Below are positions 17,643-55,619 of a stretch of DNA of 64,000 nucleotides, piece by piece. Location of the stretch: NCBI GenBank assembly GCA_041649295.1, contig JBAZNI010000001.1, forward strand, positions 11,456-75,455, given 5' to 3'. Position 1 is the stretch's first letter; the number at the start of each line of letters is the position of its first letter. Origin of the DNA: Candidatus Pacearchaeota archaeon. Lineage in GTDB: Archaea > Nanobdellota > Nanobdellia > Pacearchaeales > GW2011-AR1. The notes below the pieces were generated by a model that saw only the letters and a list, made by a program, of their open reading frames with translations, made no database searches and had not been told where the DNA came from. A program made the translations under genes and the position numbers.

Positions 17643-17664
17643 CTTAACAATTGGTTAGTTTATA

Positions 17665-26418: not shown

Positions 26419-26639
26419 CTGATTATTAACATCTTAAACATTATAAATTTTGTTATATATGTTTTATAGGTAAAACTGCTAAAAATTGTAATCTTTTGAA
26501 AAAAACCTAAAAAACCTGAAAATAAGGCAAATTCACATTTTTTAACTTTATCGTCGTAAAAATCTGTTTTTAATTTTAACCAAAATTGCAGCAATAGAAA
26601 AATTTATAAATGGGTGTAACTCAAAAATTACAACACAAA

Positions 26640-38235: not shown

Positions 38236-38722
38236 CCTTTGACACGCTTATAAGAGAACTTCCTTCTTTTTTTTCAAGGAAAATCTTTATTTTTTCTTCA
38301 GCAACATTAATACAATAAGGATTGGATGTAAATGAATCCATGTCAATATATTTAATTTCGACAGAAGGAAGTGCAGAATTTCTTGGATAGAAATAAAAAT
38401 TATGCACATTGCTCACTCTTTTTAATTCAGATACAATTCCTTTATCACTTCCTGTTGTGCTTTTTGAACTATCCCAAAAACAGACTTTTTCCACATTTCC
38501 CGGAATAGATTCTTCAAATATATAACTTGCCCCTAAAATACTGCTTCTGTGCAATTCTAAAACTTTTTCTTCAAAGTCTTCTACAAATTGCGCCTTTGCC
38601 GTTTTGTCTTTTAAATCCAAAAACATATTAATTGCATAAAAAGCAACAGCCATAAATGCTATGATAAGGATTATAGAAAATATCATTCCAAATGATAAAT
38701 TTATCTGCCCCCTTTTTTTCAT
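38228..38722 (-). CDS. type IV pilin-like protein (class III signal peptide, DUF361-like GQ-x-x-LSF)
   Basis: 164 aa. N-terminus MKKRGQ/INLSFGMIFSIILIIAFMAVAFYAI. First gene of a four-gene overlapping operon. Confidence 0.65.
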   Translation of the reverse strand: MKKRGQINLSFGMIFSIILIIAFMAVAFYAINMFLDLKDKTAKAQFVEDFEEKVLELHRSSILGASYIFEESIPGNVEKVCFWDSSKSTTGSDKGIVSELKRVSNVHNFYFYPRNSALPSVEIKYIDMDSFTSNPYCINVAEEKIKIFLEKKEGSSLISVSKVV

Positions 38723-38930: not shown

Positions 38931-39830
38931 CTAAAATATCCCTTTGCTACTCTTCAAAATTTCAGACAACAATTTGACCAAAGGTTTTAGATCCCCCTTA
39001 ATTTGTGCAGACTCTAATGCTTCATAATACTTATGTTTTATAGAATTTGGGATATTTACCATAGGAAAATTATTCTTATGCAATATAAAATTCATTAATA
39101 ACCTTCCAGTTCTACCATTTCCATCAACAAATGGATGCACTGTCTCAAATCCAGCATGGAAATAAGCTGAAACTATTAGCGGATGTAATTTTTCTTTATT
39201 TTTAGAGTACCAAAATAAAAGTGATTTTATTTCTTTTGGAACATCTTCTGGTTTTGGAGGAAGCCAATCTGTACCTCTTATATATACTTGCAAATTTCTA
39301 AAACACCCAATTTGTGTTTTTAATTCTTCTTTTAGAGTATCCTTTACAACAATTTTATGCAGTTCACAAATAAACTCTTTAGTTATGTCTCCATTATAAC
39401 TTAATATAAAGTCAAAAGCTTTTTTATGATTTAAAACCTCATTTATTTCTCTCATTGGTTTTCTAGGAGTTATGCCTTCAAAGAGTAACTGTGCTGTCTC
39501 CTGTAGTGTGAGCGTATTTCCTTCAATTGCAGTAGAATTATAAGTAAAATCAGAAGTAAAAACTTCATATCTATTTTCAAAACTTTCTTTTGGCTGTTTT
39601 TTATATTTTTCCTTTATATTATCTAACTCTTTTATATCTTGTTCTGTTAATAAGTTATTTAGGTATAATAATGTTTTATCTGCATTTTTTCCTTTTTTTA
39701 AAATTTCTTTTTTATTTAAATTAACCCCAAGATAAACTCTTTCCTTGTTAACTTTTTTCCCCCTTCTTACAGATTTAACTCTATAATAATACTTTTTTCC
39801 ATTTTTTTCTTTTATCTCCGTATATGGCAT
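38931..39830 (-). CDS. Fic-family protein (AMPylase-type) with an intramolecular inhibitory motif
   Basis: 299 aa. It has the Fic motif HPFVDGNGRTGRLL and an upstream STAIEGN, matching the (S/T)xxxE(G/N) alpha-inh motif. Confidence 0.9.
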   Translation of the reverse strand: MPYTEIKEKNGKKYYYRVKSVRRGKKVNKERVYLGVNLNKKEILKKGKNADKTLLYLNNLLTEQDIKELDNIKEKYKKQPKESFENRYEVFTSDFTYNSTAIEGNTLTLQETAQLLFEGITPRKPMREINEVLNHKKAFDFILSYNGDITKEFICELHKIVVKDTLKEELKTQIGCFRNLQVYIRGTDWLPPKPEDVPKEIKSLLFWYSKNKEKLHPLIVSAYFHAGFETVHPFVDGNGRTGRLLMNFILHKNNFPMVNIPNSIKHKYYEALESAQIKGDLKPLVKLLSEILKSSKGIF

Positions 39831-39972
39831 AATTCTTATACGTCTACATAGTATATAAATTTAACTGTTGTGTGGACGTGATTATGAGAAAGCTTAGTCA
39901 AAAGGTTCTACTCTTCAACTTTTATTTTTACTGGTTTATCATCGATAAAAAGGATGCCCCCGAGCAGTTAGT

Positions 39973-39990
39973 CCCAAGTATTAACTCCTC
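39973..39990 (+). repeat. degenerate copy of the tRNA 3'-half fragment found at 62297-62323
   Basis: cccaagtatt+aactcctc equals 62297-62306 plus 62316-62323, with the intervening 9 nt (ccgaggttc) missing. Confidence 0.4.
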
Positions 39991-40016
39991 TGCTTTTTGT
40001 TCAATTATTTCAAGAA

Positions 40017-40361
40017 TTATTCTAATCCCAAACTTATTTTTATAGCGAAATCTACTTTATTCATAGAATAAAAATCTAAAGAACTTATTCTTTTAATAAT
40101 TCTTGATTTATCAATTGTCCTTATTTGATTAAGCATAATTGTTGAATCTTTATTTAAATGAGAATCTTGTTTAGAGATAAAGACATTGGTCGGATACTCT
40201 TTTTCAGGAACTTTTGAAGTAATTGCAGCCACAATTGTTACTGGAGAAAATTTATTAGAAATATCATTCTGAATCACCAAACATGGCCTTATTCCTCCTT
40301 GTTCACTTCCTTTAACAGGTTCAAAATCAACGAGTAAAATCTCACCTCTTTTTATTTCCAT
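40017..40361 (-). CDS. mazF: MazF/PemK-family endoribonuclease toxin
   Basis: 114 aa; RGEILLVDFEPVKGSEQGGIRPCLVIQND...VTIVAAITSK is the canonical MazF pattern. Confidence 0.9.
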   Translation of the reverse strand: MEIKRGEILLVDFEPVKGSEQGGIRPCLVIQNDISNKFSPVTIVAAITSKVPEKEYPTNVFISKQDSHLNKDSTIMLNQIRTIDKSRIIKRISSLDFYSMNKVDFAIKISLGLE

Positions 40362-40638
40362 TTTTAATTTTCTTTATATCTTTAAGATATTTTTCTGGGA
40401 TTAAATCTTTACATTCCCAATCCTTAAAATCTTCTATTGCTTCAAATTCTCTTGTAATCTTCAAGCTTTCTTCGGCCATTACCTTGCAGCCTTCAATAAG
40501 TAATTGCTCTTGTTCTCTTTTGCATTTTTCTGCAATTTTCATTAGGCTTACAATAACCTCTTCGTAAGTTTCTTTATTGGATTTTAATCTATCCAAAGCG
40601 CTTTTCACATTTTCATTTAGTTGAATTGTTGTTACCAT
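40342..40638 (-). CDS. putative RHH-type antitoxin partner of MazF
   Basis: 98 aa, overlapping the mazF start by 20 nt. The N-terminal TTIQLNENVKSALDRLKSNKETYEEVIVSLM looks like strand-helix-helix. Confidence 0.55.
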   Translation of the reverse strand: MVTTIQLNENVKSALDRLKSNKETYEEVIVSLMKIAEKCKREQEQLLIEGCKVMAEESLKITREFEAIEDFKDWECKDLIPEKYLKDIKKIKNGNKKR

Positions 40639-40755
40639 GATACTATAGAATAACTATAGTTTATATATCTTTCTTTTTTCTTTTGCGATTACTTCCCAAC
40701 TTTTTCCTCACGATATAAGAAAACCTTAATAAACTGAATTCTCTTAACATGTAAA

Positions 40756-41430
40756 ATGAGAAAAGTTAAACTTATTTGGTATGCTTTAACAATTATTCCA
40801 ATAATTTTAATAATCTTAGGTTATATTTTTCCTTCTACATTTTTTTCGAGTCAAGAATCAATAAGAAATTTTGTTAGCCAATTTGGAGTATTTGCTCCTA
40901 TTGCTTTTATTATTCTTCAAATTTTACAAGTTGTCTTAACTCCAATTAGCCATTACACTGTTTCAATTGCAGGAGGGTTTATTTTTGGATTATGGCAAGG
41001 TTTTATTTACAATTATATCGGAAGAGTTATTGGAACAGCAATAGCATTTTATCTTGGTAGAAAGTTTGGAAGAAAAATAATTAAACATGTTGTTAAACCA
41101 GAAACACTCCAAAAATATGATTGTTATTTTAATAAAGGAAAACTATTATTATTTCTAGCATACTTCTTGCCTTTATTCCCAGATGACGAAATTTCTTATT
41201 TGGCAGGATTTTCTTCTATAAGTCCTTGGATTTTCTTACCACTTATGGCAATTGGGCACTTAAGTGGCAGCTTAAGTTTAGCCTATATTGGAAATGGGAT
41301 ACAATCAATTAAAGAACCAATGTTTGTCTTTCTTTCTTTGATAACTCTAATTGGGGGAGTTTTATTTGCGCTTTATTATAAAAAAATTATTTCTAATAAA
41401 CATAGTTCAACTCCCCTTCCAAGCATCTAG
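40756..41430 (+). CDS. TVP38/TMEM64 (DedA/SNARE-associated) family membrane protein
   Basis: 224 aa; GVFAPIAFIILQILQVVLTPIS...GGFIFG...GRVIGTAIAFYLGRKFGR...LFPDDEISYLAGFS. Confidence 0.85.
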   Translation: MRKVKLIWYALTIIPIILIILGYIFPSTFFSSQESIRNFVSQFGVFAPIAFIILQILQVVLTPISHYTVSIAGGFIFGLWQGFIYNYIGRVIGTAIAFYLGRKFGRKIIKHVVKPETLQKYDCYFNKGKLLLFLAYFLPLFPDDEISYLAGFSSISPWIFLPLMAIGHLSGSLSLAYIGNGIQSIKEPMFVFLSLITLIGGVLFALYYKKIISNKHSSTPLPSI

Positions 41431-41598: not shown

Positions 41599-43848
41599 TT
41601 ATTCCTCTTCACTCACAGCCCATTGTTCAGGTCTTGCAATAACAGAACATTCTGTATCTATTGGCATTCTTCCGTTTATATCCATGCATTTTATATAATA
41701 ATTTTGCTCTAACTGCCATCTTGCTAAATGAATTGTTTTTTCATCAACAGGGTCGTGAACCATCTGAGTTCCTTCTTCAATATTATAATTGCATTTTGTG
41801 CTTTCATCATTGCTGTAAGAACATGTCGCATCTTCATTAGTTATTATTTTTAAGTTGCTTCCATCATTCATTATTCTTGCAATTAACGGTTCATCTGTGT
41901 CTACATAGACACTGAAAGTTGTATTAGTTGATGCTGAATTTCCCCCTAAATCTAAACATTTCAGGTAATAAGTATAAGTTCCAGATGATAAATCCTGCCT
42001 CTGCTTGTGTTTGTAGCTGTTTGTTTCTGCAAATTTTACATAACTATCTTCACTTCCAATGCTATAATAACATTCAGCTTCTCCTTCTTTATAGCCATTT
42101 TCTGTTTCTATTCCTATATTTACCTCTACACTTGAAGTTGCTCCTGTAACTTTTTCTCCATTTTCAGGTGTTACACTATCTTCTTTTATATTCAACGGGT
42201 TTGTTCCGATTAATTTAAAAACATATGATGTAGTCATCGGATTTCTGTCTTCTTTTGCCATCCATGGCTGGTCCTCACATCTGAAATAAAATGTATTTTC
42301 TTTTCTGTCTTTAATTCCAGTTAATGCTCCATCACACGCATACAATAAATTCTTAGACATTGCAGAAGGGCTTTGAGCGCAAGTCATTGTATTTTCCATA
42401 TCATTAATACTCTGGTCTGTGAAAGACCATTTGCAGTTTGCAGGTTCATTAGTGTAAATAGTTATTGGAGTTGCTCCAATTTCGCCATTATAGCTAACCT
42501 GATATTGAACAGGGCTTCCATTGTCAATGCTTGTTTCTTCAATATATGGAGGGGTTAAATCAGGCCCATCATCAACGCAAATATCAATTCCATAAGGAGC
42601 TTCATTATAGAAACCATTTGCACTTATGCATCTTACATACAAATTATAAGATTTTGCATTTTCAATTATCATCCTAGAATCTTCTTCTGTTAATTCTTCT
42701 GAGTCATTTGATGTAGCTTTTATGTAAGAATCAATTGCTCTTGGGCTTGGCATATTCATTTTTTGCGAATGATTGTATGCAAATAAATTTGACTCTCCGA
42801 AAAAGTAAGCCATTTCATCATAAGTGTCTGTCAGTGAAAAATCAATTTTACATTGTGCTGGTTTGTTAGTTTGTATTCCAAATTCAAGTGGGGTAAATGC
42901 AGGTATACATCCATCTTTTTTTCCAGGCATTATAATCTTTGTTCCCCACGACGGAGGCATTTCTTTTATCTCTGAATATTTTAATCCTTTTGTCAGCACA
43001 TCTTCCCACGGGCGAATCATCGGGCTTTTAACATCTTTTGGATTTATCCACACACATCTTTCTTCAGCTGTCCCGGCATTAACAATATCACATGCCTGCC
43101 CTAAACTCTTGCACCTATATTCTGAACATGGTTGAACACCGTCGTTGCACTTCTCGCAGTCAGCTCCTCCAATAGGAGCTTCCCACGGCAAACAATCAAA
43201 ATCAACTGTTTTATAAGAAACTTTTTTATATGTCATTATAAATACAACAGCTCCGACAGCAATTCCAGTTATCCAGGGGTTTTGTCCGATTAAACCAAGT
43301 GCTCCATGCTCAGCAAACATCCCTCCTTCTGCAAACATTCCTGTTGCTCCTTCAGCTTGTCCTGATGCCTGCAAAGCTGCTAAACTTTTTCCAGTAAATG
43401 CAGCAGCTGCCAATCCATTCTGAAGTGCTTTTGTCGTCGGTTCTTCTAAACCAAGAGCATTCCCAATCCATCCAGATGCAAAGTATGCAACTCCCGCCCA
43501 CACAACTCCACCAATAACTCCTTTTGCTCCAGGAGCACTAGGGGCGAGGAATTGTTTTATGAGTCCAGGTTCGTCTGTAGCTACGCCCTCGGCAGTATGA
43601 GAAGTTTTTGATGCTTCTTTAAGTTTATTAAACTCTGTAGGAGAATGCATTTTACCATCAACATTACTAATCCATTTATCTTCTACAGCATTATATGTAA
43701 ACGGAACATTTCCTAAAGAATCTGTTGCTCCATTTGTTATATCCGCTTTCACAAGTTTTATATCCAATCCAATCATAAATGCTATAGCAAAAATAGAGAG
43801 AATTATATTTATAATTATTAAAATAGCATTCCTCTTTTTATTCATCAA
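41599..43848 (-). CDS. large Cys-rich surface protein, type B (Gly/Ala-rich membrane region, CxxC knot, four Cys-framed beta modules)
   Basis: 749 aa. Residues ~215-749 are collinear with the C-terminal ~560 aa of the 48251-52171 product (e.g. CEKCNDGVQPCSEYRCKSLGQAC vs CGECNKDEQKPCSKYKCESLGMNC; NKPAQCKIDFS vs NIPAQCKFSTD). A TTTATAAA box lies at 43867-43874. Confidence 0.7.
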   Translation of the reverse strand: MMNKKRNAILIIINIILSIFAIAFMIGLDIKLVKADITNGATDSLGNVPFTYNAVEDKWISNVDGKMHSPTEFNKLKEASKTSHTAEGVATDEPGLIKQFLAPSAPGAKGVIGGVVWAGVAYFASGWIGNALGLEEPTTKALQNGLAAAAFTGKSLAALQASGQAEGATGMFAEGGMFAEHGALGLIGQNPWITGIAVGAVVFIMTYKKVSYKTVDFDCLPWEAPIGGADCEKCNDGVQPCSEYRCKSLGQACDIVNAGTAEERCVWINPKDVKSPMIRPWEDVLTKGLKYSEIKEMPPSWGTKIIMPGKKDGCIPAFTPLEFGIQTNKPAQCKIDFSLTDTYDEMAYFFGESNLFAYNHSQKMNMPSPRAIDSYIKATSNDSEELTEEDSRMIIENAKSYNLYVRCISANGFYNEAPYGIDICVDDGPDLTPPYIEETSIDNGSPVQYQVSYNGEIGATPITIYTNEPANCKWSFTDQSINDMENTMTCAQSPSAMSKNLLYACDGALTGIKDRKENTFYFRCEDQPWMAKEDRNPMTTSYVFKLIGTNPLNIKEDSVTPENGEKVTGATSSVEVNIGIETENGYKEGEAECYYSIGSEDSYVKFAETNSYKHKQRQDLSSGTYTYYLKCLDLGGNSASTNTTFSVYVDTDEPLIARIMNDGSNLKIITNEDATCSYSNDESTKCNYNIEEGTQMVHDPVDEKTIHLARWQLEQNYYIKCMDINGRMPIDTECSVIARPEQWAVSEEE

Positions 43849-43927
43849 TTTTACAGGAAAAACAGATTTATAAATTTGTTTATATTGAAGATAATTTACT
43901 TAAATTTTTTTTACTCTACTTTTTATA

Positions 43928-44362
43928 CTAATTATCACAAATAGAAGTTATATTTTTTTTAAAATAACCAAAGTCTGAATCGCCAATTTTCATACTAATC
44001 AAAGGATCATCTTGTTTAGTTATCTTTCCATAAGCTATAACTTTTTCTCCAAGACAATTAATAGAGCAAACAACATCCTCTCCCATTGGGATAGAATAAA
44101 TCTTCCTAACACCATTCTTAATTTCTTGAATTACTTGTCCATTAGAACTGCTATTTTCCCTTCCTACTTCATTAACATTAACCTCGACATTAGTCCCCTT
44201 AGGATCTAATGCTCCAGAGATAGCCGAACCTGCTGTTTGATAAACTAAAAATTCTCCGAATGCATTTCCAGCAGGAGTTGTCTGACAGCCAGTTAGTGCA
44301 GTTGCTAAACCCGCTAATCCAACTAATCCTCCATTAATTAATTGTCTTGTTTTTCTTATCAT
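43928..44362 (-). CDS. putative lipoprotein (lipobox LTGC)
   Basis: 144 aa. The N-terminus is MIRKTRQLINGGLVGLAGLATALTGC. Its start overlaps the upstream gene's stop. Confidence 0.55.
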   Translation of the reverse strand: MIRKTRQLINGGLVGLAGLATALTGCQTTPAGNAFGEFLVYQTAGSAISGALDPKGTNVEVNVNEVGRENSSSNGQVIQEIKNGVRKIYSIPMGEDVVCSINCLGEKVIAYGKITKQDDPLISMKIGDSDFGYFKKNITSICDN

Positions 44363-44775
44363 ATTACTACTCCATAGTTACATGTATTTAAATCTTTTGT
44401 TTTCTCATTATAAGCAACACCAGCCCACACAACTCCTTGTGCCATTCCCCAACCACCCAAATCCGCATCTTTAGGATTTTTATATAAATATTCATACCAA
44501 GATAATTTGTCAGGATTTAAACTTGCAGGAGTGTTAGTTGAAGAGCCATAGGCAAATTCTGCCTCCTTTTTTGTCATGGCCTCTTCCGTTTTTACAGCAT
44601 CTACTGTTTGTTGATCTGGTAACCCCTTAGCATAATTAAACCACCAGTCACCATCAGGAGCACTCACCAACTCACTCTCCAACCCAATCATAAACGCAAT
44701 TGCAAAAATAGAGATTAAGATATTGACTAATATAACCAAACATTCACTCTTTTTTATCACCTCTGTTTTTACCAT
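44359..44775 (-). CDS. small signal-anchored protein sharing its N-terminus and the GVVWAGVAY motif with the 749-aa protein
   Basis: 138 aa. NILISIFAIAFMIGLE compares with NIILSIFAIAFMIGLD in 41599-43848; GVVWAGVAY is present in both. Confidence 0.55.
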   Translation of the reverse strand: MVKTEVIKKSECLVILVNILISIFAIAFMIGLESELVSAPDGDWWFNYAKGLPDQQTVDAVKTEEAMTKKEAEFAYGSSTNTPASLNPDKLSWYEYLYKNPKDADLGGWGMAQGVVWAGVAYNEKTKDLNTCNYGVVI

Positions 44776-44783
44776 TTTGTTTT

Positions 44784-45257
44784 TTAACTATCAATTAATT
44801 GAGTAATCCAACCCGTTCTAATAGTCGAATATCCTCTGAATTTTGTGGGTTTGCCATCCTCTAATTCTTGCATTACATATACACTCATTTTATCAGGCCT
44901 TCTCCATTTAATTTCTCCCCAATATTCAAATCTTTTACCATCACAATTAAAAGCTACATAATCTAATTGTCTAGGTTGACTTGGTTGAGCATATTGCCCT
45001 TGATTACCACCATTGTAAATATTAACTTTTGTTCCGCTGTTTTCAAGTGCTTGTGTACTTCCTGCTGCTTGAAGTCCTGTTCCTATTGTAGAAAGTGCTT
45101 GCGCTTGTTTAAATGTTTTAGCTCCAGGCACTAGTAAGTTAACTCCTGTTCCAAGTAAACTAGTATTAGAGCCAGTAGCACAACCAACTAAACTTCCAAG
45201 TCCAACCAATCCAACTAATCCTTTTGCAAAATCTCTTCGTGTTATTTTTTGGGCCAT
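44784..45257 (-). CDS. putative Tat-exported lipoprotein
   Basis: 157 aa. ITRRDFAKGLVGLVGLGSLVGC has a twin-arginine motif plus a lipobox. Its own TTTATAAA box at 45285-45292 is 28 nt upstream. Confidence 0.6.
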   Translation of the reverse strand: MAQKITRRDFAKGLVGLVGLGSLVGCATGSNTSLLGTGVNLLVPGAKTFKQAQALSTIGTGLQAAGSTQALENSGTKVNIYNGGNQGQYAQPSQPRQLDYVAFNCDGKRFEYWGEIKWRRPDKMSVYVMQELEDGKPTKFRGYSTIRTGWITQLIDS

Positions 45258-45299
45258 TTTGTTATTATTTTATAGTAACATCATTATTTATAAACTTTT

Positions 45300-47192
45300 C
45301 TATCCTACCTCATTCGTTGCCTTTGTTGTGCTTTCACTATCAGTGTCTGTAGTAGTCTCTGTATTTGTTGAAAACTCTCCGCCGGTGCTTCCCCCGAACT
45401 GCTGTTTGGTATCAACTTCTGCTGCTTTCTTTTCATCTTCTGTTCCTGTTTTCTCACCTGATTTTGAAATTGTTACTCTGAAACCGCCATCAACATATTT
45501 TCCTATATAATTTCTGTCACTTCCACAATCTCCGTAATTTGTGCATAATCTGTTAACTTGGAAAGCTGTTAGTGGTTCTAAACATTCGCAGTTCTCAACA
45601 CATGTTCCGTCTCCCTTGCCCCATAATTTTTTTTCATATTTTACAATGCAAGATTGAGATGCTAAATCACACTGGTTTTCACTGCCTTCATCCCAGAAAG
45701 AAATTCCAGGAGCAACATCTGGAACACATCTCCAGTTCCGATTGTCTTCTTCAACATTTTGTTCTAATTTAAGCATGCTCCCAATTAACCCCTCATTAAT
45801 GCTTCCGATTGTCTGTGCAAGTATATCTTCTTCTGTTATTTTTTCTATTAATATTGGAACCCACTTGCAGTCTCTTTTATCTGTGTTGCGACAGTCTCTA
45901 GAGCTATTTTGCATAATGCAATCCTCCCACCTGTTAGCAACACATCCAGCTTGGGCAAAATCCTCTTTTTCCCCAATAGTGTCTTGAACGCAAACTTCTT
46001 TCCTATAATCATCACAAGGCTCAACAATTTCTTCACTTAAGAAACATATATGCCTGAAATGCCTGCTTCCAGGAGCATCGCTATCTTCTTTTCCAGAATC
46101 ATAAACACACCACGATTCCCCATTTTTGTAATCTTTTCCATTATATGTATCATAACAGTTTAAATCAGAGCAGATAAAACTCCCATATGTCGGCTTTCTG
46201 CTTCCTGCGGATTTACAAATGCTTCCTTCAAGATAATTGCAGTTTCCACAGCTCTTAGATTCTGCATTTGCAGAATTACTGCCTCCCCCACAACTTTCAT
46301 CTTTAGGAACAACCTTAGCCCAGTAAGCAACATCATTTATTTTAGAAGCGTCGTAAATATTTGCAGGATTCCCGCATGTGTCGATAAAATAAACTTCATC
46401 TTTGCCTTCAATACAGACAGTTTCTTTAGTTTTTTCGCAGATAGTGTTTAATTCCTGTGCTGTGCATAAGTAATTTTTATGAAAAACAATAGAAGATGTA
46501 TTTGTAGTGCCTTTTACACTTTCAGAATTGCATTCAGCTCTTGTAGTAAATTTGCATGTTGTCTGGTAATCAGATTCAAAAACACATGCACCAACATCCT
46601 GCGAACTTGCTAATGCAATGCAAGACAATTCATCTGCAACATTTTTCCTAAAATCAGTTATTAATCCATAATATCCAGATAATTTTTTGCATCTTACTAA
46701 TGGAACATAAGCTGCCTGCTGCCCTAGAACGCAACATCCTAATTCGCATTTTGGAGTTGCTTTGCAGTCAGCACCTTCATCCCACTCTCCTCCAGAACTA
46801 ACACAGGCTTCTCTTGGAACATTTTCCATACAAACACCTTCATCAGAATCATAACAACATCCTCTTTTGCAGAATGAAGTTGCTTCGCACGAAGTCGGAG
46901 TTTTTTGAAATTTAGCATCGCATTGTTCTAACGGGGAATTCTGGCAATAAGCTCCTGATAAAGTTTTTTCACAGCAATAACTAACTTCAACAGCAGAAGT
47001 CATCTGCATAGTTAATACTAAAATTAAATATAGTGATAATGTGAAGACAGCTAATTTAAAATAAGCACTATTAACTTTTAAGCCAGCTCTTTTTCTCATA
47101 TTGTTAATTGTTTTACTGCTCTTATTAATTTTTAGTCTCTCAATTATACTATTTTTTTCCATCTTAAATATTTCTATACTCTTATTTGCCAT
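45300..47192 (-). CDS. large Cys-rich secreted protein, type A
   Basis: 630-aa ORF. The likely real start is MRKRAG at 47099, which places the signal peptide (LAVFTLSLYLILVLTMQMTSA) at the N-terminus. It is collinear with residues ~50-545 of the 48251-52171 product (GCCYDSDEGVC / GCCFDTEEGLC; ELSCIALASSQDVGACVF / ELSCIESTQSLEKGACRF; EVYFIDTCGNPANIYD / EVYWFDSCGNPENIYD). Confidence 0.7.
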   Translation of the reverse strand: MANKSIEIFKMEKNSIIERLKINKSSKTINNMRKRAGLKVNSAYFKLAVFTLSLYLILVLTMQMTSAVEVSYCCEKTLSGAYCQNSPLEQCDAKFQKTPTSCEATSFCKRGCCYDSDEGVCMENVPREACVSSGGEWDEGADCKATPKCELGCCVLGQQAAYVPLVRCKKLSGYYGLITDFRKNVADELSCIALASSQDVGACVFESDYQTTCKFTTRAECNSESVKGTTNTSSIVFHKNYLCTAQELNTICEKTKETVCIEGKDEVYFIDTCGNPANIYDASKINDVAYWAKVVPKDESCGGGSNSANAESKSCGNCNYLEGSICKSAGSRKPTYGSFICSDLNCYDTYNGKDYKNGESWCVYDSGKEDSDAPGSRHFRHICFLSEEIVEPCDDYRKEVCVQDTIGEKEDFAQAGCVANRWEDCIMQNSSRDCRNTDKRDCKWVPILIEKITEEDILAQTIGSINEGLIGSMLKLEQNVEEDNRNWRCVPDVAPGISFWDEGSENQCDLASQSCIVKYEKKLWGKGDGTCVENCECLEPLTAFQVNRLCTNYGDCGSDRNYIGKYVDGGFRVTISKSGEKTGTEDEKKAAEVDTKQQFGGSTGGEFSTNTETTTDTDSESTTKATNEVG

Positions 47193-47214
47193 TTTGTTTT
47201 TATTTATTTTTTAT

Positions 47215-47290
47215 ATTCTCGCTTTTGTCTAATCTTTCCTAAAGAACATATTTGTTCTTTGAACAGAGAATTTTTAATTCTCTTGGTTAT
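47215..47290 (-). repeat. three-hairpin structured element, copy C (between the pilin-like gene and the type-A Cys-rich gene)
   Basis: The minus strand reads ccaagagaat(taaaa)attctctgtt-caaagaaca(aata)tgttctttagg..., the same hairpin order and loop lengths as copies A and B. Hairpin 2 carries a compensated G:C to A:T change. Confidence 0.55.
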
Positions 47291-47298
47291 GGAAAAGA

Positions 47299-48090
47299 TT
47301 AATAACCATAACCTACAGGAAATACAAGACTCTTAACAGCAAAATTAAAACTTTCTTTGCTGTCTCTGTCTGAAACATAGTAAAGTGTCGAGCCATCACC
47401 CTGTTTTAACATTTCCACCCTGATGTTTGGATACATTGCCATATACACAACAGGGTCGCTGTTTCCAAATCTTGCCTCATAATTTAATATTGATGTTGAT
47501 ATCATTATTAAGTCATAATAATTGCTTTTAACAGACACTTCAAAAGGGCTGTCAAATCTGGCACTTGTCTCGCTTCTGCTTATTGTGATAGGATAATCAA
47601 TTATAAATTTTATTTCACTTGGCACAAATTCAAGAGTAAAATTAATATTTCCAGATGCAACAGAATAACCGCTTGCTTTCAGCTCTTTTTCAACCTGATT
47701 AATACAGCCAATTATTTCATCTTTAACAGCATCCTTTGCCTCTTTTTCTATACCTTGCAACAACAGGGGTTTTTGCATTGTGCATGTTTTATAATACTCA
47801 TTTGTATAGCAGAGATATTCTAATTTTTTGCCGTCGTGCATGTAAGCATGTTCAGGATTTGCACTTCCTCCTTGGGATAAAATCACATCAATCGAATTTT
47901 TAATTTGTGGATTTTTTTCAATGCAGTTTTTTAAATTAGAATTTACATCATATTCAATCCCAAAAACTCTGTTGACTATGCCTCTTCCCGAATCTGTAAA
48001 TGCAAAAAATAATATCAGCAATCCTACAATTACCACAGCAATTATTATAAATACAGTTACTTGTCCTTTTTTGCTTTTATTTAACACCAT
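47299..48090 (-). CDS. pilin-like protein (class III signal peptide), paralog of 52168-52941
   Basis: 263 aa. N-terminus NKSKKGQ/VTVFIIIAVVIVGLLILFF. Shared motifs with the paralog are YLCYT, EARFGNSDP/EAKYCNSDYP and FNFAVK/WGFAVR. Confidence 0.65.
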   Translation of the reverse strand: MVLNKSKKGQVTVFIIIAVVIVGLLILFFAFTDSGRGIVNRVFGIEYDVNSNLKNCIEKNPQIKNSIDVILSQGGSANPEHAYMHDGKKLEYLCYTNEYYKTCTMQKPLLLQGIEKEAKDAVKDEIIGCINQVEKELKASGYSVASGNINFTLEFVPSEIKFIIDYPITISRSETSARFDSPFEVSVKSNYYDLIMISTSILNYEARFGNSDPVVYMAMYPNIRVEMLKQGDGSTLYYVSDRDSKESFNFAVKSLVFPVGYGY

Positions 48091-48250
48091 CTTTTATTTT
48101 TTAAATTATTGCACTTTTATTGATAATTTATCTAGGTTTATGCAACTTAAATAAAGTTCATATTTTGGCATATTGCGCTTCTTTTCCCAAAACCTCTTTT
48201 ATTTTTTTCATATTTTCTTAACGATAAATTTCTTTATAAATTTATTTAAA

Positions 48251-51200
48251 TTATACCGATGCATCATGTTTGACAATTACAGCACATTCGCTGTTCTGAT
48301 TGTCAAATCTGTCCTTGCATTTAATATAATATGTAAGTTTGTCATTTCTTTCAGCAATATGTATTTTTTTTAATTCTTCACTCATTGAAATGCCATTATC
48401 AAAGGCAAATTCACATTTATTGAGTGCATTGTTGCTGTAAACACATTTGGAATTTTTATTTGTTAAAACAATGATGTCTCCTCCCTGTGAATAAACTCTT
48501 GTTACTTCAGGTGCTAAATTGTTATTAGTTTCATTATCTGAATTATTGTCCCCTTCAGGATAATCATTAGGATCATTAGGGTCTGTTCCATTTTCTGCTT
48601 CTTCTTCATCAGTCCATCCATCCCCGTCACTATCAACTCCTTCAGCTGTTCCCTGAACCAGCTCAAATTTTGCTTCATTATAAGCTGTATTTCCACCTGT
48701 ATCAATACACCTTACTTTGATAGTATAATTTCTAAACAGCATTGAATTCAGCATTTGGTTATGTTCGGATTTTCCAGTATCATAAAAAGTTATAAAAATG
48801 TCCTCTCCTAAACTGCTTAAACTATACTGACAATAGGCATCTCCGTTTACTCCCCCGCTTGTTTCTGCCTTTAACTCAACAGAAGCTGGCTCTAATTCTG
48901 AATAAACAGTTCCCCTAGGGGTTATTGAATCAATTACTAGTGCAGAATCTGACCTGTATAGCTTATATTCGTAAACACTTCCAATATTCCTTGAATTGTT
49001 TTCTTCTAGCCATGGCTGGTCTCTGCAAACTATATAGAAATTATTTTCTTTTTGTTTTATTTGTAAGGTTGCATTGCATAGGTAACCTAATAAACTCCCA
49101 CTACCAACATCATCTTCACAATACATATTATTTGTCATTGCAAAATATTGCTCCTCGCTTGTGCCTGCTAATATTTCATCAGAGAACCTGCATTCAGCAG
49201 GTTCATTAACATAAAATCCTGCATTCCATTGTGTTGCATTGTAAGCAACAATTGAATCTTCAGGAGGCGAAGTTGCAATTATAACTGGAGGAGTTCTGTC
49301 AGGCCCGTCATCAACGCAAAAATTGATTTTATAATTTGCAACATTTGTAACACCTTTAGTATTTGCACATTTTACATAAATATTTACATCGCCCAATATA
49401 TCTAAAATGCCCCCCATTACAGTTTCATTAGAAATTAGTGTGTTAAATTCATCAGTGTTTAATGTCTCTCCTGCAATAACACTTTCAGCACTTGGCAAGT
49501 AAGTTGTTGTTGTATGATTTTTCGAATATAAATCTCCTTCTAAAAATGAATATTCCATGCTGTCAAATAAAATTTTTGGGTCTGTTGAAAATTTGCATTG
49601 TGCAGGAATATTTGTATTTACCCCAAATGCAACATGCTCAAATGCAGGCAGGCACTTTCCATCTTTTGTTCTAACATTAAATCCATTTAAACCAACACTT
49701 GTATAAGAATACTTGTTCTTATTTAAAACTTCATAGTTTGGACTAATAACTGGAATTCCTTCTCCTGTTTCAACTGTTACACATTCAGGATTTGCTGTAT
49801 CTTCATTAATAAGTTTGCAATTCATTCCCAAACTCTCACACTTATACTTCGAGCACGGTTTCTGTTCGTCTTTGTTGCACTCCCCACAATTTCCAACAGC
49901 AGGGCGTTGCCACTGCTTGCATGTAAATGTTATTTCTGTTTCTTCTGTTTCTCCGCAACCCATGAGGTAGGATAATCCGAGGTAGGCTAATACACCAACA
50001 CCTACCCAAGCAGTAGGACCTAATCCCAACAAAGTTCCACCAGATGTCGATGCACCTCCCGCTCCTGCACCACCTGCTGCAGCAGTTGTAGTTCCAGCTC
50101 CACCTACAGTTCCTGTAACTCCTGAAGACAATGTCACTGTTGAACCTGATACGCTAGTAACTCCTGCTAATCCTGTGCTAGTTACACCTATTCCTCCTTG
50201 TACTCCAGTTAATGTAACACCATTAGATAATGTAAGTGTAGAACCTGCTCCTAAAGTTGCTGTTGAACCTCCTGATAAAACAGTTCCAGATGCTATTGCT
50301 CCTGCACCAAGCGCATGACCTCCAAGTGAAGCAACTCCTAATCCTGCACCAGTTGCTCCTACTGCCGAACCCCCTAAAGTATTGCTTAACTGCCCACCTG
50401 AAAACATACCACTATCAATCTCTTTTCCCATATAATTTCCAAATATTTCATCTATCCCATACATTTGAAGATTATCTAATCCATTAATATTATTAAAAAA
50501 ACCGGGCTTTGCACTTTGCCCAGGAATTGCAATTGCAAAAATTCCGTATATCTTGTCAATGCCTGTTAATCTTGGAGGTTTTTTTGCTTTTCCACCTTTT
50601 TTAGATATTGAGTAACCTCCTTCTGTAACTTTTCCTGCAATATTTGATTTAGCACCACAGTCTCCTAAATTCTGGCAGTATTCATTCATTTGAGCAGTAA
50701 ATATTATCTTTTCACATTCGCAGTTTTTTACACACTCCCATTTACAAAAAGGTGCAATCCCCTTTTTTTGGTAAACAACAGTGCAGGTTTTTGTTCCTTT
50801 ACTGCACGGATTATCACTTTGTCCTAAGTTTCCAAGTGCTCCTAATCCACTTGATGATAGCTGTCCTCCTAATTCTCCTGTTAACTGGTCTGTTGCACCC
50901 TCAACAATTCCTCCTAATTCAAACCCCGGAGGGTATTTTGGAACACATCCTGTAAAATAAAAATCATTAGATACATAAACAACTTTTGGCATGCAGTCAG
51001 GATTTTGGGCGCAATTAAGAACAGTTCTACCTCCACAATCTTCCCACATGTTGGTTCTGCAAAAAGCTCCGCTCTGGTCAGGTAAACTGCTAGAAACTAA
51101 TCCACTAACTCCAGGAATATCCGCAGCTAATCCTCCGACAACACTCCCCATTGCAGATGTTTCAACGCAAATTTCCTTCCGATAATCTGCACAAGGTTCT

Positions 51201-52171
51201 GTTTTTATCTCTCCATTTACGCATAATTCCCTATAATGTCTGCTGCCGACAACATCCCTGCCACTTCCAACAACTCCGTCATAAACACACCACGATTCCC
51301 CATTCTTCCTTGTTTTTAATCCATCTTTGCAATTTAAATTTCTGCAAGTGTAATCTCCATTTAATTTTTTCTTATCAACGCCTTTTCTATAAGCGCCACA
51401 GATACTTCCTTTATTATAGTCGCAATTCCCGCATGTAGATAGTAGCGAGTTATCACCAATTGGATTGCAGGATAATTCTTTGCTTAAAACTTTGCCATTA
51501 TTCCACGAACGAGCTTTGTTAGAATCATAGATATTTTCAGGATTTCCGCACGAATCAAACCAATACACCTCATCTTTTTCATCTACACACCCAGTTGTTT
51601 TTTGCCTTTCACAGTTTGTTTCTAGTTCAGGGTTTGAACATAAGTAATTATTAAAAAATTCTCCTCTTACAGAATCACATTCTGTCTTAGTTGTAAATTT
51701 GCAGTTATACTTAACTTCACTTTCTGTTTTAAATCTGCACGCACCCTTTTCCAAACTTTGAGTTGATTCAATACATGATAATTCACTAGTTATTGATTTG
51801 TCAAATTTAGATTCAACTCCAAACATTTCACTTAATTTTGAACATCTTGTTTCTGTTACTAATTGGGATTCTAACCCTAAAGAACAGCATCCTTTTGCGC
51901 ATAATAAATTGTCGCACCCCTCTCCTGCTATCCATTTTCCATTTTCATTAGCTTCGCATGTTTTACTTCCTGAATTAGGAGAGCACAAACCTTCTTCTGT
52001 ATCAAAACAACATCCAGGAGTTCCACCTGAGCTTTCTAAGGTACCTTCAATGCTAAAATCATCAGCAGCAGAAACAGGTTTAATTTCTAAACCAACTAAA
52101 TAAGCAAATGCCACAATCCCAAATATCAATAAAGTTATTTCAAATGTAGATATTTTTCCTTTAGTTTTCAT
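48251..52171 (-). CDS. giant Cys-rich surface protein, a fusion of type-A and type-B proteins via a Gly/Thr/Ser/Ala-rich linker and a TM
   Basis: The track ORF is 1319 aa. The start is placed at MKTKGK (52171), which overlaps the upstream stop as ATGA. It has a signal peptide ending VSA, an N-terminal half like 45300-47192, low complexity at about 49958-50404, and a C-terminal half like 41599-43848. Confidence 0.75.
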   Translation of the reverse strand: MKTKGKISTFEITLLIFGIVAFAYLVGLEIKPVSAADDFSIEGTLESSGGTPGCCFDTEEGLCSPNSGSKTCEANENGKWIAGEGCDNLLCAKGCCSLGLESQLVTETRCSKLSEMFGVESKFDKSITSELSCIESTQSLEKGACRFKTESEVKYNCKFTTKTECDSVRGEFFNNYLCSNPELETNCERQKTTGCVDEKDEVYWFDSCGNPENIYDSNKARSWNNGKVLSKELSCNPIGDNSLLSTCGNCDYNKGSICGAYRKGVDKKKLNGDYTCRNLNCKDGLKTRKNGESWCVYDGVVGSGRDVVGSRHYRELCVNGEIKTEPCADYRKEICVETSAMGSVVGGLAADIPGVSGLVSSSLPDQSGAFCRTNMWEDCGGRTVLNCAQNPDCMPKVVYVSNDFYFTGCVPKYPPGFELGGIVEGATDQLTGELGGQLSSSGLGALGNLGQSDNPCSKGTKTCTVVYQKKGIAPFCKWECVKNCECEKIIFTAQMNEYCQNLGDCGAKSNIAGKVTEGGYSISKKGGKAKKPPRLTGIDKIYGIFAIAIPGQSAKPGFFNNINGLDNLQMYGIDEIFGNYMGKEIDSGMFSGGQLSNTLGGSAVGATGAGLGVASLGGHALGAGAIASGTVLSGGSTATLGAGSTLTLSNGVTLTGVQGGIGVTSTGLAGVTSVSGSTVTLSSGVTGTVGGAGTTTAAAGGAGAGGASTSGGTLLGLGPTAWVGVGVLAYLGLSYLMGCGETEETEITFTCKQWQRPAVGNCGECNKDEQKPCSKYKCESLGMNCKLINEDTANPECVTVETGEGIPVISPNYEVLNKNKYSYTSVGLNGFNVRTKDGKCLPAFEHVAFGVNTNIPAQCKFSTDPKILFDSMEYSFLEGDLYSKNHTTTTYLPSAESVIAGETLNTDEFNTLISNETVMGGILDILGDVNIYVKCANTKGVTNVANYKINFCVDDGPDRTPPVIIATSPPEDSIVAYNATQWNAGFYVNEPAECRFSDEILAGTSEEQYFAMTNNMYCEDDVGSGSLLGYLCNATLQIKQKENNFYIVCRDQPWLEENNSRNIGSVYEYKLYRSDSALVIDSITPRGTVYSELEPASVELKAETSGGVNGDAYCQYSLSSLGEDIFITFYDTGKSEHNQMLNSMLFRNYTIKVRCIDTGGNTAYNEAKFELVQGTAEGVDSDGDGWTDEEEAENGTDPNDPNDYPEGDNNSDNETNNNLAPEVTRVYSQGGDIIVLTNKNSKCVYSNNALNKCEFAFDNGISMSEELKKIHIAERNDKLTYYIKCKDRFDNQNSECAVIVKHDASV

Positions 52172-52941
52172 GGAGTCTCTAATACGCATCCGCGGACAGC
52201 GAACCCCCACAATTTATTTGTTCTTGTATCTTTAACAGTATAAATTTTATTGTCATCGCCTGTCTGGAATTTCTCAATATTTGCCCATGTATTTGCTCTC
52301 ATAATTAGAGGATAATCTGAATTGCAGTATTTTGCTTCTTGTTCTATTATTGTATGGACAACAACAGCAATATTATAAATAGGGCTTGGAATCTGAATTT
52401 CATATTTGCTAAATCCTTTTTTATCATCTGCTTTTGAAATTTTAAATTCCCGGTTTATATTAATTTCTATTTTTCCAGAAAGCAGAACAACTTCATAATC
52501 CATATCTTTTTCAAGAACAACTTCATACCCCTCTTTTTCATATTTTGCTTTTATATCATTAAAGCATTTTTGGGCTTTTGGCAGGGAATAATCATAAATT
52601 TCATCTTCTATATGATTTATTAAAACAGGATTTACAGGCTGGCATTTTGCATTGTTTTTTGAAGTATAGCATAAATAAGGGTATTCTTTATTTTCGAATT
52701 TTTTAACTTCATTTGGCAGTTTTACATAACCTCCGTTATCAATAATCATATTTGATGCATCTTCAACAGCTTCTCTTACACACTGCATAACCTCCTGATT
52801 TGGCTCTTGTGATGGTTTTGGGGATATTGGAAGTTTTCCATTTTTATATAGAATAAATAAAAAAATAACAGCCACAATTATTAATACTGCAATAATTATA
52901 AAAATTGTCACCTGCCCTTTTTTATTTTTCACCTTTTTCAT
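52168..52941 (-). CDS. pilin-like protein (class III signal peptide), paralog of 47299-48090
   Basis: 257 aa. N-terminus KNKKGQ/VTIFIIIAVLIIVAVIFLF. It has ATGA overlaps with both the upstream RHH gene and the downstream giant gene. Confidence 0.65.
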   Translation of the reverse strand: MKKVKNKKGQVTIFIIIAVLIIVAVIFLFILYKNGKLPISPKPSQEPNQEVMQCVREAVEDASNMIIDNGGYVKLPNEVKKFENKEYPYLCYTSKNNAKCQPVNPVLINHIEDEIYDYSLPKAQKCFNDIKAKYEKEGYEVVLEKDMDYEVVLLSGKIEININREFKISKADDKKGFSKYEIQIPSPIYNIAVVVHTIIEQEAKYCNSDYPLIMRANTWANIEKFQTGDDNKIYTVKDTRTNKLWGFAVRGCVLETP

Positions 52942-53178: not shown

Positions 53179-53820
53179 TTACATTGGGTAATAAATTCCA
53201 TCGATGCATACTTGACCAGCAGGACGAATACTTGATTCGTGGTAATCAATGAAACAATAATCTCGAATAAGACTTGCAAATGGAAATGCTTTTATAGCGC
53301 ATTCTTTTGCTGCTTCCAGCCCCACTCTACAACAATTTGTAATTTTATAATATTTTGGTTTAACACAAGTTCCAGTTTCCTTGCCTTTTGGTATGCAACA
53401 TTTTGTAGGTATAGCATTTATATAGATGCCATAACAATTGGAATTAGTTTTACATCCACATTTAGATGCAGTTACACCGTTAGTATTTTGAAAATTATTA
53501 ATACATATGTGCCCTGCAGAACTTTTTGAACAGTCTGAATCAAGACTGCAAAATACACAATGGCAGTCATGCGGATCAAGACTTGAGCATCCAAGAGTGG
53601 TGTCTATTTTCATAACACATCGTGGTGTTCCACGTTCACAATGTTCATCATTATAACAACAAGAACCTTCTTTTGGATTTTTACATCCCTCATCACCAGG
53701 GCTAAGTAAAATATTTTTGCTTTTCAAATAATTTCCAACACCAACCAAAACAAGAGCAATTATCAAAACAGAAATAACAATATAAATAAGTTTCCTGTTT
53801 TTCCTAACCCCTTTTTTCAT
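53179..53820 (-). CDS. Cys-rich secreted or anchored protein (213 aa, ~29 Cys)
   Basis: N-terminal TM or signal IYIVISVLIIALVLVGVG, followed by dense CC/CxC patterning (GSCCYNDEHC, CHCVFC, CGC, KCCIP, NCC). Confidence 0.55.
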   Translation of the reverse strand: MKKGVRKNRKLIYIVISVLIIALVLVGVGNYLKSKNILLSPGDEGCKNPKEGSCCYNDEHCERGTPRCVMKIDTTLGCSSLDPHDCHCVFCSLDSDCSKSSAGHICINNFQNTNGVTASKCGCKTNSNCYGIYINAIPTKCCIPKGKETGTCVKPKYYKITNCCRVGLEAAKECAIKAFPFASLIRDYCFIDYHESSIRPAGQVCIDGIYYPM

Positions 53821-55292: not shown

Positions 55293-55619
55293 TCAAAAAA
55301 TAATAATTCCTCTTTCTTTTGCTTCTTTTGCAATTGTAACCATCTTAGACAATCGGTTAAACTCTTTCGGAGTATAGCAAATAACCTCCAAATCAATATA
55401 TTCATCCCAATATCCAATAACTTCAGACATTCTTTTTCTAAATGGGACCCCTTTAAAATCTTTTGAGATTAATATTAAATCCACATCGCTGTTAAATACC
55501 CAATCTCCTCTCGCTCTGCTTCCAAATAAGATAGCTCTGTCTATTTTAAATTTTTTATTTACTTTTTTAAGATATTCGTTTAGCAATTTAATTACTCTTT
55601 CATTTGTGTACTTATCCAT
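55293..55619 (-). CDS. minimal nucleotidyltransferase (MNT) domain protein
   Basis: 108 aa with the LFGSRARGDWVFNSDVDLILIS (GS-x10-DxD) motif. Confidence 0.85.
   Translation of the reverse strand: MDKYTNERVIKLLNEYLKKVNKKFKIDRAILFGSRARGDWVFNSDVDLILISKDFKGVPFRKRMSEVIGYWDEYIDLEVICYTPKEFNRLSKMVTIAKEAKERGIIIF

Follow-up and report, generated by a model that had tools for sequence, protein, structure and literature searches.

Fused and split paralogs of a predicted cell-envelope protein in a gene cluster conserved across Pacearchaeota and Woesearchaeota

In Rosetta-stone (domain-fusion) pairs, a composite protein is collinear with two separate proteins, and the separate genes are neighbours and co-evolve. 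The same is found in the locus described here, where a 1306-aa protein (the fused AB protein) corresponds to two smaller proteins, A (630 aa) and B (749 aa), which are encoded downstream. The three genes lie in a stretch of 64,000 nucleotides (hereafter the window) from a Candidatus Pacearchaeota archaeon (GenBank assembly GCA_041649295.1, contig JBAZNI010000001.1, positions 11,456 to 75,455). The window is part of a 565-kb contig; its G+C content is about 31% and its gene content is archaeal (primase small subunit, PCNA, an S_layer_C-family protein, deoxyhypusine synthase and archaeal-type ribosomal proteins). The homologs of the cluster genes come from records named Pacearchaeota, Woesearchaeota or Nanoarchaeota, and the source of the window is a Pacearchaeota-like DPANN archaeon.

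In the surface layer (S-layer) of the Sulfolobales, an outer canopy protein, SlaA, is combined with a membrane-anchored β-sandwich stalk protein, SlaB. Pacearchaeota and Woesearchaeota are abundant, uncultured and genome-reduced archaea, and their way of life has been deduced mostly from what they lack. In the passages of Castelle et al. (2021, PMC8204110) considered here, module 98 of the DPANN protein families groups 51 families common to Pacearchaeota and Woesearchaeota, mostly of unknown function. According to the same passages, many lineage-specific DPANN families are predicted to be membrane-bound or extracellular, and the lineage-specific proteins of these two groups are almost all "hypothetical".

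All the open reading frames (ORFs) of the AB/A/B region are on the minus strand, in the order 257-aa gene, fused AB, 263-aa gene, A, 157-aa gene, 138-aa gene, 144-aa gene and B. The features are the following (positions in the window):

52168-52941, minus strand: pilin-like partner of the fused copy, 257 aa, N-terminus KKG/QVTIFIIIAV (from sequence); its stop codon overlaps the ATG of the fused gene, as ATGA
48251-52171, minus strand: fused AB gene, 1306 aa, with signal, Cys-rich A part, Gly-rich linker, transmembrane (TM) helix and immunoglobulin (Ig)-like B part (sequence, BLASTP)
50588-52018, minus strand: Cys-rich region of the fused protein that corresponds to A, about aa 52-528 (E 3e-73 with A in BLASTP)
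50036-50587, minus strand: Gly/Ala/Ser/Thr-rich low-complexity linker, about aa 529-712, partly aligned to B 95-185, with weakly hydrophobic segments (sequence)
49955-50035, minus strand: internal TM helix of the fused protein, about aa 713-739, followed by ..LMGCGE (hydropathy)
48254-49954, minus strand: region of the fused protein that corresponds to B, about aa 740-1306, with the Cys cluster and Ig-like domains (E 2e-73 with B in BLASTP)
48569-48634, minus strand: TSP3-type calcium-binding repeat in the fused B part (Pfam PF18884, E 1.1e-5, 25.6 bits for a cut-off of 25)
47299-48090, minus strand: pilin-like partner of the split copy, 263 aa, KKG/QVTVFIIIAV (sequence, paralogy, motif)
45300-47192, minus strand: A, predicted secreted Cys-rich protein, 630 aa, 45 Cys, Sec-type signal ..MQMTSA/VEV, no C-terminal anchor (sequence)
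44784-45257, minus strand: lipoprotein-like gene, 157 aa, with a TRRDFAK twin-arginine-like motif and the lipobox LVGC (sequence)
44359-44775, minus strand: gene of 138 aa that partly duplicates the first 122 residues of B, with signal and extracytoplasmic stub (BLASTP, E 2e-5)
43928-44362, minus strand: lipoprotein-like gene, 144 aa, lipobox LTGC (sequence)
41599-43848, minus strand: B, 749 aa, with signal, variable stub, Gly-rich region, TM helix (aa 186-206), Cys cluster and about five Ig-like domains (aa 215-749) (sequence and AlphaFold2 (AF2) model)

The two halves of the fused AB protein are homologous to A and B. Residues 6-528 align with residues 46-581 of A (33% identity, 244 bits, E 3e-73) and residues 593-1303 align with residues 95-741 of B (29% identity, 248 bits, E 2e-73). 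In composition-adjusted BLASTP, each pair gives one single collinear alignment, of 594 and 739 columns, respectively. A and B score only 23.5 bits against each other, none of 30 shuffles of A or B exceeds 23.5 bits, and the reversed sequences reach 17.7 bits (A) and 25 bits (B). The low scores of the shuffled and reversed controls show that the similarity does not result from a Cys-rich composition.

An initial annotation, made from the DNA letters and the ORF translations, had proposed this Rosetta-stone relation and a pairwise comparison of the three proteins; the homology given above and the survey of other loci both bear the relation out, far more strongly than was visible from the letters. 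The N-terminal half of the fused protein is collinear with A, as described there. The C-terminal half is indeed collinear with B, but the match begins at about residue 95 of B instead of about residue 215, and it takes in the Gly-rich region and the TM helix. A and B have each their own start and their own targeting signal, and they are independent components, not fragments. Searched by tblastn, the window yields no additional paralog of A, of B or of the pilin-like gene.

The three families are large. The fused family has 896 homologs, the best 120 of which are nearly all 1100-1390 aa long; stand-alone A has 1350, the best 120 being mostly 500-700 aa long and 45-58% identical; stand-alone B is represented by 1994 cluster representatives (E ≤1e-3, 50% clustering). 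A pattern scan of the GTDB species representatives detected at least 535 stretches that encode relatives, and 80 loci (about 77 non-redundant) were retrieved. Their titles read Pacearchaeota, Woesearchaeota, Nanoarchaeota or plain archaeon, with the single exception of a Paceibacterota bacterium. A survey of fused and split architectures in related genomes, which had also been proposed, shows that a fused copy upstream and a split copy downstream occur jointly in 47 loci of other Pacearchaeota/Woesearchaeota species, and that four loci have two fused copies. A is followed by B in 50 loci; the gap is at most 232 nt in 28 of these (overlaps and abutments included), and 22 have one to a few small ORFs in between.

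Two other Pacearchaeota contigs (L001 and L002) have one-to-one orthologs of the cluster genes in identical order: primase (opposite strand), PCNA, pil257, fused AB, pil263, A, B, pil164, pil319, pil176 and pil181 (the six pilin-like genes), then an HVO_A0114-type regulator (opposite strand), an S-layer protein and two more conserved ORFs. The order is the same in nearly all the loci that are long enough to display it. This block of about 15 genes is a defined, conserved and lineage-specific envelope cluster of Pacearchaeota/Woesearchaeota. Beyond B, it comprises in the window:

36241-38722, minus strand: four further pilin-like genes, 164, 319, 176 and 181 aa (sequence, synteny)
35885-36244, plus strand: winged-helix regulator of the HVO_A0114 family (Pfam PF25212, E 2.7e-15; synteny)
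33026-35365, minus strand: S-layer-like protein, 779 aa, conserved end of the cluster (Pfam S_layer_C, E 3.6e-9; synteny)

Full-text searching of the literature returned no description of the cluster, of the relation between A and B or of the protein structures. When A, B, the fused protein and the pilin-like proteins are compared with Pfam, NCBIfam, PHROGs and PDB profiles, the only matches are TSP3, a weak Big_13 and one PHROG of unknown function, which lies on the TSP3 region; beyond TSP3 on the fused protein, no Pfam family is above threshold for A or B, and there is no solved structure. The families, the fold of A and the cluster are undescribed, while the general category (Ig-like surface proteins, gene fission) is familiar.

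Neighbour-joining (NJ) trees, without support values, were built for the A part (136 sequences) and the B part (121 sequences), and each divides into two clades at the midpoint. In the A tree, clade 1 (53 tips) contains only fused proteins, including that of the window; clade 2 contains 74 stand-alone A and nine fused proteins, three of which are basal and six scattered in at least four places among the split members. A clade-1 fused protein is followed by a clade-2 A in 47 loci. Some cluster representatives are fused, yet their halves are closest to A (46-47%) and B (40-43%) of the window, not to its fused protein. According to these trees, the fused and split copies are ancient paralogs.

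The initial annotation had spoken of a fusion. The direction seems to be the opposite: because three of the nine clade-2 fused members are basal, a fused ancestor is probable and the boundary labile, and the split state probably arose by fission. As judged from the trees, the split lineage has switched several times between the two states. A strong internal copy of the B signal is lacking in the clade-2 fused proteins, which argues against a simple read-through re-fusion for most of them. The two pilin-like partners are paralogous (pil257 and pil263, 27% identity, E 9e-23), and the duplicated unit therefore consists of a pilin-like gene and an AB gene. In the history that we propose, the ancestor would have been fused, a tandem duplication would have occurred before the sampled radiation, and an early split of the downstream copy would have been followed by several changes of state.

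The co-evolution of A and B was assessed by distance-matrix correlation in the 22 genomes that have the full gene set, the partial r being the correlation from which the signal of PCNA and primase is removed. The separate A and B give r 0.89 (partial r 0.69), the A and B halves of the fused paralog give r 0.90 (partial r 0.73), and the partial r of cross-paralog pairs is 0.33-0.47. All pairs are "significant" by permutation and some residual phylogeny remains, so the ranking is the informative part. The separate A and B thus co-evolve as tightly as the halves of a single chain. The functional coupling of A and B has good computational support, because this ranking comes together with adjacency and with repeated fused/split changes.

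The A part is rich in cysteines, with 37 invariant Cys columns and nine that are nearly so in 119 sequences. The AF2 model of A has a mean predicted local distance difference test (pLDDT) score of 81, a predicted template modelling (pTM) score of 0.66 and 310 residues at pLDDT ≥90. Foldseek returns no match for this model at E ≤1e-3 in PDB or BFVD, class II fusogens and fusexins (HAP2, Fsx1, viral) included, and the family profile has no sequence match in PDB. The A head is predicted to be a disulfide-rich fold of about 500 residues without a match among PDB or predicted viral structures. The signal of A in the window is a generic Sec-type signal, unlike that of B and of the fused protein. MAFFT had paired DSLGNVPFTY, in the N-terminal region of B, with DSCGNPENIY, a motif of A, as if B kept a remnant of A. 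A hidden Markov model (HMM) of the A family finds no significant remnant of this kind in about 135 stand-alone B representatives, and the pairing is therefore dismissed as an artefact of the alignment.

The B signal is of the type x[SA][YF][FL][EQ]I..L[IV]..F[AS]F.. and ends in ..VSA[QAE]. The N-terminal signal of the fused protein is of this same conserved type, which heads all the fused proteins and some of the A proteins. An HMM of the B signal gives a median of 29 bits for the fused N-termini and does not match A signals of the window type. The B-type signal is present on some stand-alone A and on all clade-2 fused proteins, without internal copies. The idea that A was nested inside the first loop of B was also considered and set aside; the shared signal would be the ancestral signal of the family and does not discriminate.

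In B, the signal is followed by a variable stub devoid of sequons (N-x-S/T), a Gly/Ala-rich region, the TM helix and a cluster of seven cysteines (C-x11-C-x2-C-x6-C-x4-C-x6-C-x11-C). The array beyond this cluster consists of roughly five β-sandwich domains, as counted by eye on the secondary-structure string, and in the AF2 model (59-row alignment) residues 220-745 are mostly at pLDDT 85-97. Foldseek gives 436 PDB matches at E ≤1e-3, and the top 50 are mostly tandem Ig, fibronectin type III (FnIII) or cadherin ectodomains and adhesins. Big_13 matches B of the window with 23.2 bits, below the cut-off of 27; two relatives are above it (P0247, 29.1 bits; P0305, 28.5 bits), and relatives also match DUF4625 above the cut-off. 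In most Ig-like domains, two cysteines appear to be invariant; they lie in the motifs A.C[KY][WY]S and Y.[IVL][KR]C.D. The TSP3 repeat of the fused B part lies in a gap of the alignment with B and is absent from B.

Two other features of the B part were observed. Proteins of the always-fused clade (fused-family proteins P0002-P0120) have a conserved lipobox-like L[GA]CGK behind the internal TM helix (LMGCGE in the window, TYKK in stand-alone B), where the fused chain could be processed internally or lipidated. Five B-type proteins of 1066-1282 aa (P0307, P0329, P0332, P0355 and P0386) lack the A domain and carry instead of the short stub a long N-terminal extension which has no match in Pfam; the "head" position may accept other domains.

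We consider it rather probable that the locus derives from one ancestral cell-envelope gene, present as two old tandem paralogs that are each preceded by a pilin-like gene of their own, and that its products have a head-on-stalk organization. The upstream copy would have remained intact, with its signal, disulfide-rich head, Gly-rich linker, TM helix, Cys cluster and stalk of about five Ig-like domains. The downstream copy would have been cut between the head and the linker. A would be exported as a soluble protein by means of an ordinary Sec signal; B would retain the signal of the family, a short variable extracytoplasmic stub, the linker, the TM helix and the Ig-like array. Most likely, secreted A would dock on membrane-anchored B and so rebuild the head-on-stalk unit of the fused paralog, possibly with the help of the lipoproteins often encoded between A and B. 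The two units, the six pilin-like proteins and the S-layer protein would together form the products of a lineage-specific envelope cluster, whose role may be structural or adhesive (contact with a host or a substrate, for example).

Several observations weigh against this proposal. The physical contact between A and B is deduced from sequence patterns; the history relies on the NJ trees; in 11 loci A is not followed by B on the same strand; and the label "pilin-like" comes from N-terminal motifs alone. The others concern the topology. The A and B parts are separated by a single strong TM helix, whose flanks contain 0.2 lysine plus arginine before and 2.7-2.8 after; according to the positive-inside rule, this would make it a stop-transfer anchor and the B part cytoplasmic. 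To place both parts outside, a second membrane pass would be required, and the upstream Gly/Ala-rich segment is only weakly hydrophobic: it reaches a Kyte-Doolittle (KD) hydropathy of at least 1.6 in 80% of the fused proteins and 29% of the B proteins, compared to 0% of control ectodomain stretches. Last, the observed/expected ratio of sequons is 0.24-0.38 in the A part and 0.94-1.09 in the B part, a difference which could mean that the two parts are in different compartments.

These topological signals lead to the alternative that survives best, which we nevertheless find unlikely: the fused protein would resemble a type I receptor, its A part and linker being outside, its Ig-like B part cytoplasmic, and a single TM helix joining the two. 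For the split pair, this would mean that secreted A attaches to the short stub which B exposes outside the cell, and thereby links an external event to a scaffold inside it. This alternative accounts for the single strong internal helix and its flanking charges, for the lack of a convincing second TM helix in most stand-alone B, for sequon statistics of the B part that are like those of cytoplasmic controls and unlike those of the A part, and for the CxxC-containing Cys cluster with which the B part opens. It is less easily reconciled with the invariant Cys pair that most Ig-like domains seem to keep, in motifs that resemble the B and F strands and are typical of disulfide-bonded extracellular Ig domains, with the above-threshold matches of relatives to extracellular bacterial Ig families (Big_13, DUF4625) and with the TSP3 calcium-binding insert. 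The N/S/T-rich composition and sequon density, similar to those of the S-layer protein, and the lipobox-like L[GA]CGK that clade-1 proteins carry behind the helix also argue against it.

The sequon ratio of the B part (0.94-1.09) resembles both that of the cytoplasmic controls (0.7-0.97) and that of the S-layer protein (1.13); it is 0.05 in the B stub, 0.33-0.65 in most pilin-like proteins and 1.18 in pil181. Hydropathy, flank charge and sequons thus give conflicting signals. An extracellular B part seems to us the better reading, in view of its Cys pairs of the Ig type, the matches to Big_13 and TSP3, a composition like that of the S-layer protein and the L[GA]CGK site of clade 1. Sequons are strongly depleted in the A part, the B stub and five of the six pilin-like families (observed/expected 0.05-0.65); the B part, the S-layer protein, pil181 and o196 show no such depletion (families from L001-L083). 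This suggests that glycosylation is selectively avoided on some of the exported proteins.

A conserved [KR][GA]/Q stands before a hydrophobic helix in four of the six small neighbour families. This strict class-III-like motif is found in 60 of 83 orthologs of pil263, 31 of 49 of pil257, 17 of 30 of pil176 and 10 of 34 of pil164; pil319 (2 of 32) and pil181 (0 of 26) do not fit the pattern. In the alignment of the pil263 family (A4), Q10 (+1) and F14 are invariant, and the homologs are all annotated "hypothetical". The genes pil164, pil319, pil176 and pil181 have one-to-one orthologs in the same order in L001, L002 and most of the long loci. None of the six matches a pilin or class-III family in Pfam or NCBIfam, and the 257-aa protein has no match in PDB. 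Neither a filament ATPase nor a platform or prepilin peptidase gene was found in the window ORFs that were scanned (most, not all, of those of at least 100 aa) or in the 10-kb flanks of L001 and L002. A class-III signal was also considered for the fused and B proteins, and rejected: the motif is present in only 6 of 117 fused and 29 of 125 B proteins, and the usual end of their signal, ..VSA[QAE], resembles a site for signal peptidase I.

These neighbours suggest another alternative, modelled on bacterial minor pilins and PilY1, to which we give a rather low probability: A, B and the fused protein would be tip adhesins or large minor subunits of a type-IV-pilus-like filament, and the six pilin-like genes would encode its priming complex. 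Six small pilin-like genes with class-III-like N-termini are indeed fixed in the cluster, and one is strictly paired and co-duplicated with each AB unit. A block of four such genes recalls minor-pilin operons. On the other hand, the lack of pilin family matches in the six proteins, the absence of ATPase, platform and prepilin peptidase genes from the scanned region, and the poor fit of the fused and B signals to the class-III pattern do not support this alternative.

A third alternative is that A and B became functionally independent after the fission and that their adjacency reflects operon inertia. The 22 loci with other genes between A and B, and the 11 loci where B does not follow A, are consistent with it. 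However, the rates of A and B are coupled as tightly as those of the halves of a single chain, and more than in any cross-paralog pair, and re-fused or never-split members are scattered within the clade. Independence of the two proteins is therefore improbable.

The genes between A and B of the window correspond to what the initial annotation had described, namely two genes with lipobox N-termini (pattern [LVI][ASTVI][GAS]C closing the N-terminal signal: ..GSLVGC/ATG in the 157-aa protein and ..TALTGC/QTT in the 144-aa protein; their lipidation is predicted) and a 138-aa gene which matches B. The latter, a diverged copy of residues 20-122 of B (32% identity, E 2e-5 in BLASTP), overlaps the next gene by 4 nt. 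The 157-aa and 138-aa genes have no counterpart in the other loci (no homolog of the former is found in L001 or L002), and homologs of the 144-aa lipoprotein occupy the corresponding place in L004 and L005. The ORFs that separate A from B, inspected in 21 loci, mostly have a lipobox and evolve fast; some are small cytoplasmic-type gene pairs which resemble mobile toxin-antitoxin modules. It appears from these comparisons that the three intervening genes are lineage-specific and not a fixed part of the system, and that lipoprotein genes recur at this place. In addition, the 157-aa protein has the twin-arginine-like motif TRRDFAKG ahead of its lipobox, and an ORF between A and B in L025 has DRRNFMKG and a lipobox; these proteins may be lipoproteins exported by the twin-arginine (Tat) pathway in a DPANN archaeon.

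The three unrelated small genes and the partial duplicate of the 5' end of B resemble a disruption, and one may wonder whether a second fused gene is decaying into a pseudogene here, or only seems to be split because of an assembly or frameshift error. This is very improbable: stand-alone A and B are large families (45-58% and 40-59% identity), have each their own start and export signal, are adjacent in 50 loci of different species, and show purifying conservation at all their Cys positions. As for a chance alignment of Cys-rich, low-complexity sequences (A has 45 Cys, B 21, and the linker is of low complexity), it is refuted by the BLASTP controls, with collinear alignments at E ~1e-73 compared to at most 23.5 bits for shuffled and 25 bits for reversed sequences, and by dozens of invariant non-Cys columns over more than 100 homologs.

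The cluster of the window is interrupted between B and the four pilin-like genes by a lineage-specific insertion:

38931-41430, strand not assigned: VTT membrane protein, small toxin-antitoxin-like pair and Fic protein (Pfam VTT_dom, Fic)

It is absent at this position in L001 and L002. It comprises a VTT-domain membrane protein on the plus strand, a PemK/MazF-like toxin with an upstream antitoxin-like ORF, recognized by eye, and a Fic-domain protein. Insertions of Fic or toxin-antitoxin-like genes also interrupt the cluster, at differing points, in L005, L018, L030, L050 and L081. Directly upstream of the first pilin-like gene, positions 53179-53820 (minus strand) encode a 213-aa protein with one N-terminal TM helix and 22 Cys; no equivalent exists in the other 80 loci, and Pfam gives no match. 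Between PCNA and primase (55293-55987, minus strand), two overlapping ORFs appear by eye and by BLAST to be nucleotidyltransferase-like (108 aa) and HEPN-like (131 aa); such pairs are present at other points of the cluster in L026, L041, L051 and L080.

Outside the cluster, the region 16557-18717 (plus strand) looks like a diversity-generating retroelement. The candidate variable repeat (VR, 17174-17256) lies in the 3' end of a 279-aa ORF (16557-17396), and 12 of its 14 mismatches are at adenines of the 83-nt template repeat (TR, 17560-17642); the reverse transcriptase gene (RT, 17665-18717; RVT_1, E 1.7e-16) is just downstream of the latter. The window also encodes a 636-aa secreted protein with a Cys/acidic-rich region and a C-terminal TM helix (58065-59975, plus strand), without Pfam match and unrelated to A or B in tblastn, a 1032-aa protein with a dockerin-type repeat (20246-23344, minus strand), a 545-aa CARDB-domain protein beside a GT2 glycosyltransferase (26610-28247, plus strand) and a truncated-looking peptidase C39-like ORF (6100-6708, plus strand).

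The two largest components of the cluster thus gain a domain plan and confident structure models, and the comparison of one chain with two is a natural experiment, which indicates the parts that belong together. They are also concrete targets for studies of how these cells contact hosts or surfaces. More tentatively, the cluster could be a lineage-defining contact apparatus of Pacearchaeota/Woesearchaeota, made of membrane-rooted Ig-stalk spikes with disulfide-rich heads of a new fold (for five Ig-like domains and a head, we estimate a length of about 20-25 nm), in one-chain and two-chain versions, and of dedicated pilin-like partners, assembled beside the S-layer; these uncultured archaea of the episymbiont type would use it for attachment to hosts or surfaces. 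We consider this idea rather unlikely. If the function is purely structural, the result is a useful annotation rather than a surprise. Its significance would rise if the cluster encodes the host-contact structure of these archaea, or if the B array is cytoplasmic.

The A, B and other cluster proteins have the same taxonomic distribution and predicted location as the families of module 98 (in the passages of PMC8204110 considered), and may plausibly be among them. That paper lists families in bulk, and its searched passages do not mention the cluster, the A/B relation or the structures.

Like tandem Ig-like, cadherin-like and FnIII proteins and bacterial Big-domain adhesins, the B part is a predicted chain of about five β-sandwich domains, and Foldseek gives a probability of 1.0 for its relation to PTP-delta, DSCAM, cadherins, titin, GhpA and a bacterial large adhesion protein. 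The TM-scores are low (0.12-0.20 for the whole chain), so that only the domain class is common, and these adhesins have no counterpart to the A head.

The nearest functional analogies are two-component S-layers and minor-pilin/PilY1 operons, and the comparisons made here place the cluster in neither group. As in SlaA/SlaB S-layers, the genes of a predicted secreted outer protein and of a membrane-anchored β-sandwich partner are adjacent, and an S-layer gene is present in the cluster. The differences are that the anchor helix is N-terminal to the Ig-like array and not C-terminal, that a separate S_layer_C protein is present and that a single-chain paralog exists; no PDB sequence match was found with the A or fused/B profiles, and no S-layer protein among the top 50 fold matches. 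Minor-pilin/PilY1 operons and archaeal type-IV filament loci (bioRxiv 10.64898/2026.04.22.720090) encode, as here, small prepilin-like proteins beside very large surface proteins. Here, in contrast, no ATPase, platform or peptidase gene is nearby, no pilin family is matched and the large proteins mostly lack the class-III cleavage motif.

The reasoning is that of Rosetta-stone pairs, from which the locus differs in two respects. The composite and split forms are paralogs in the same genome and in the same cluster, and are conserved across an order-level lineage; moreover, the state has apparently flipped several times and the composite is probably ancestral, which makes this pair a probable case of fission.

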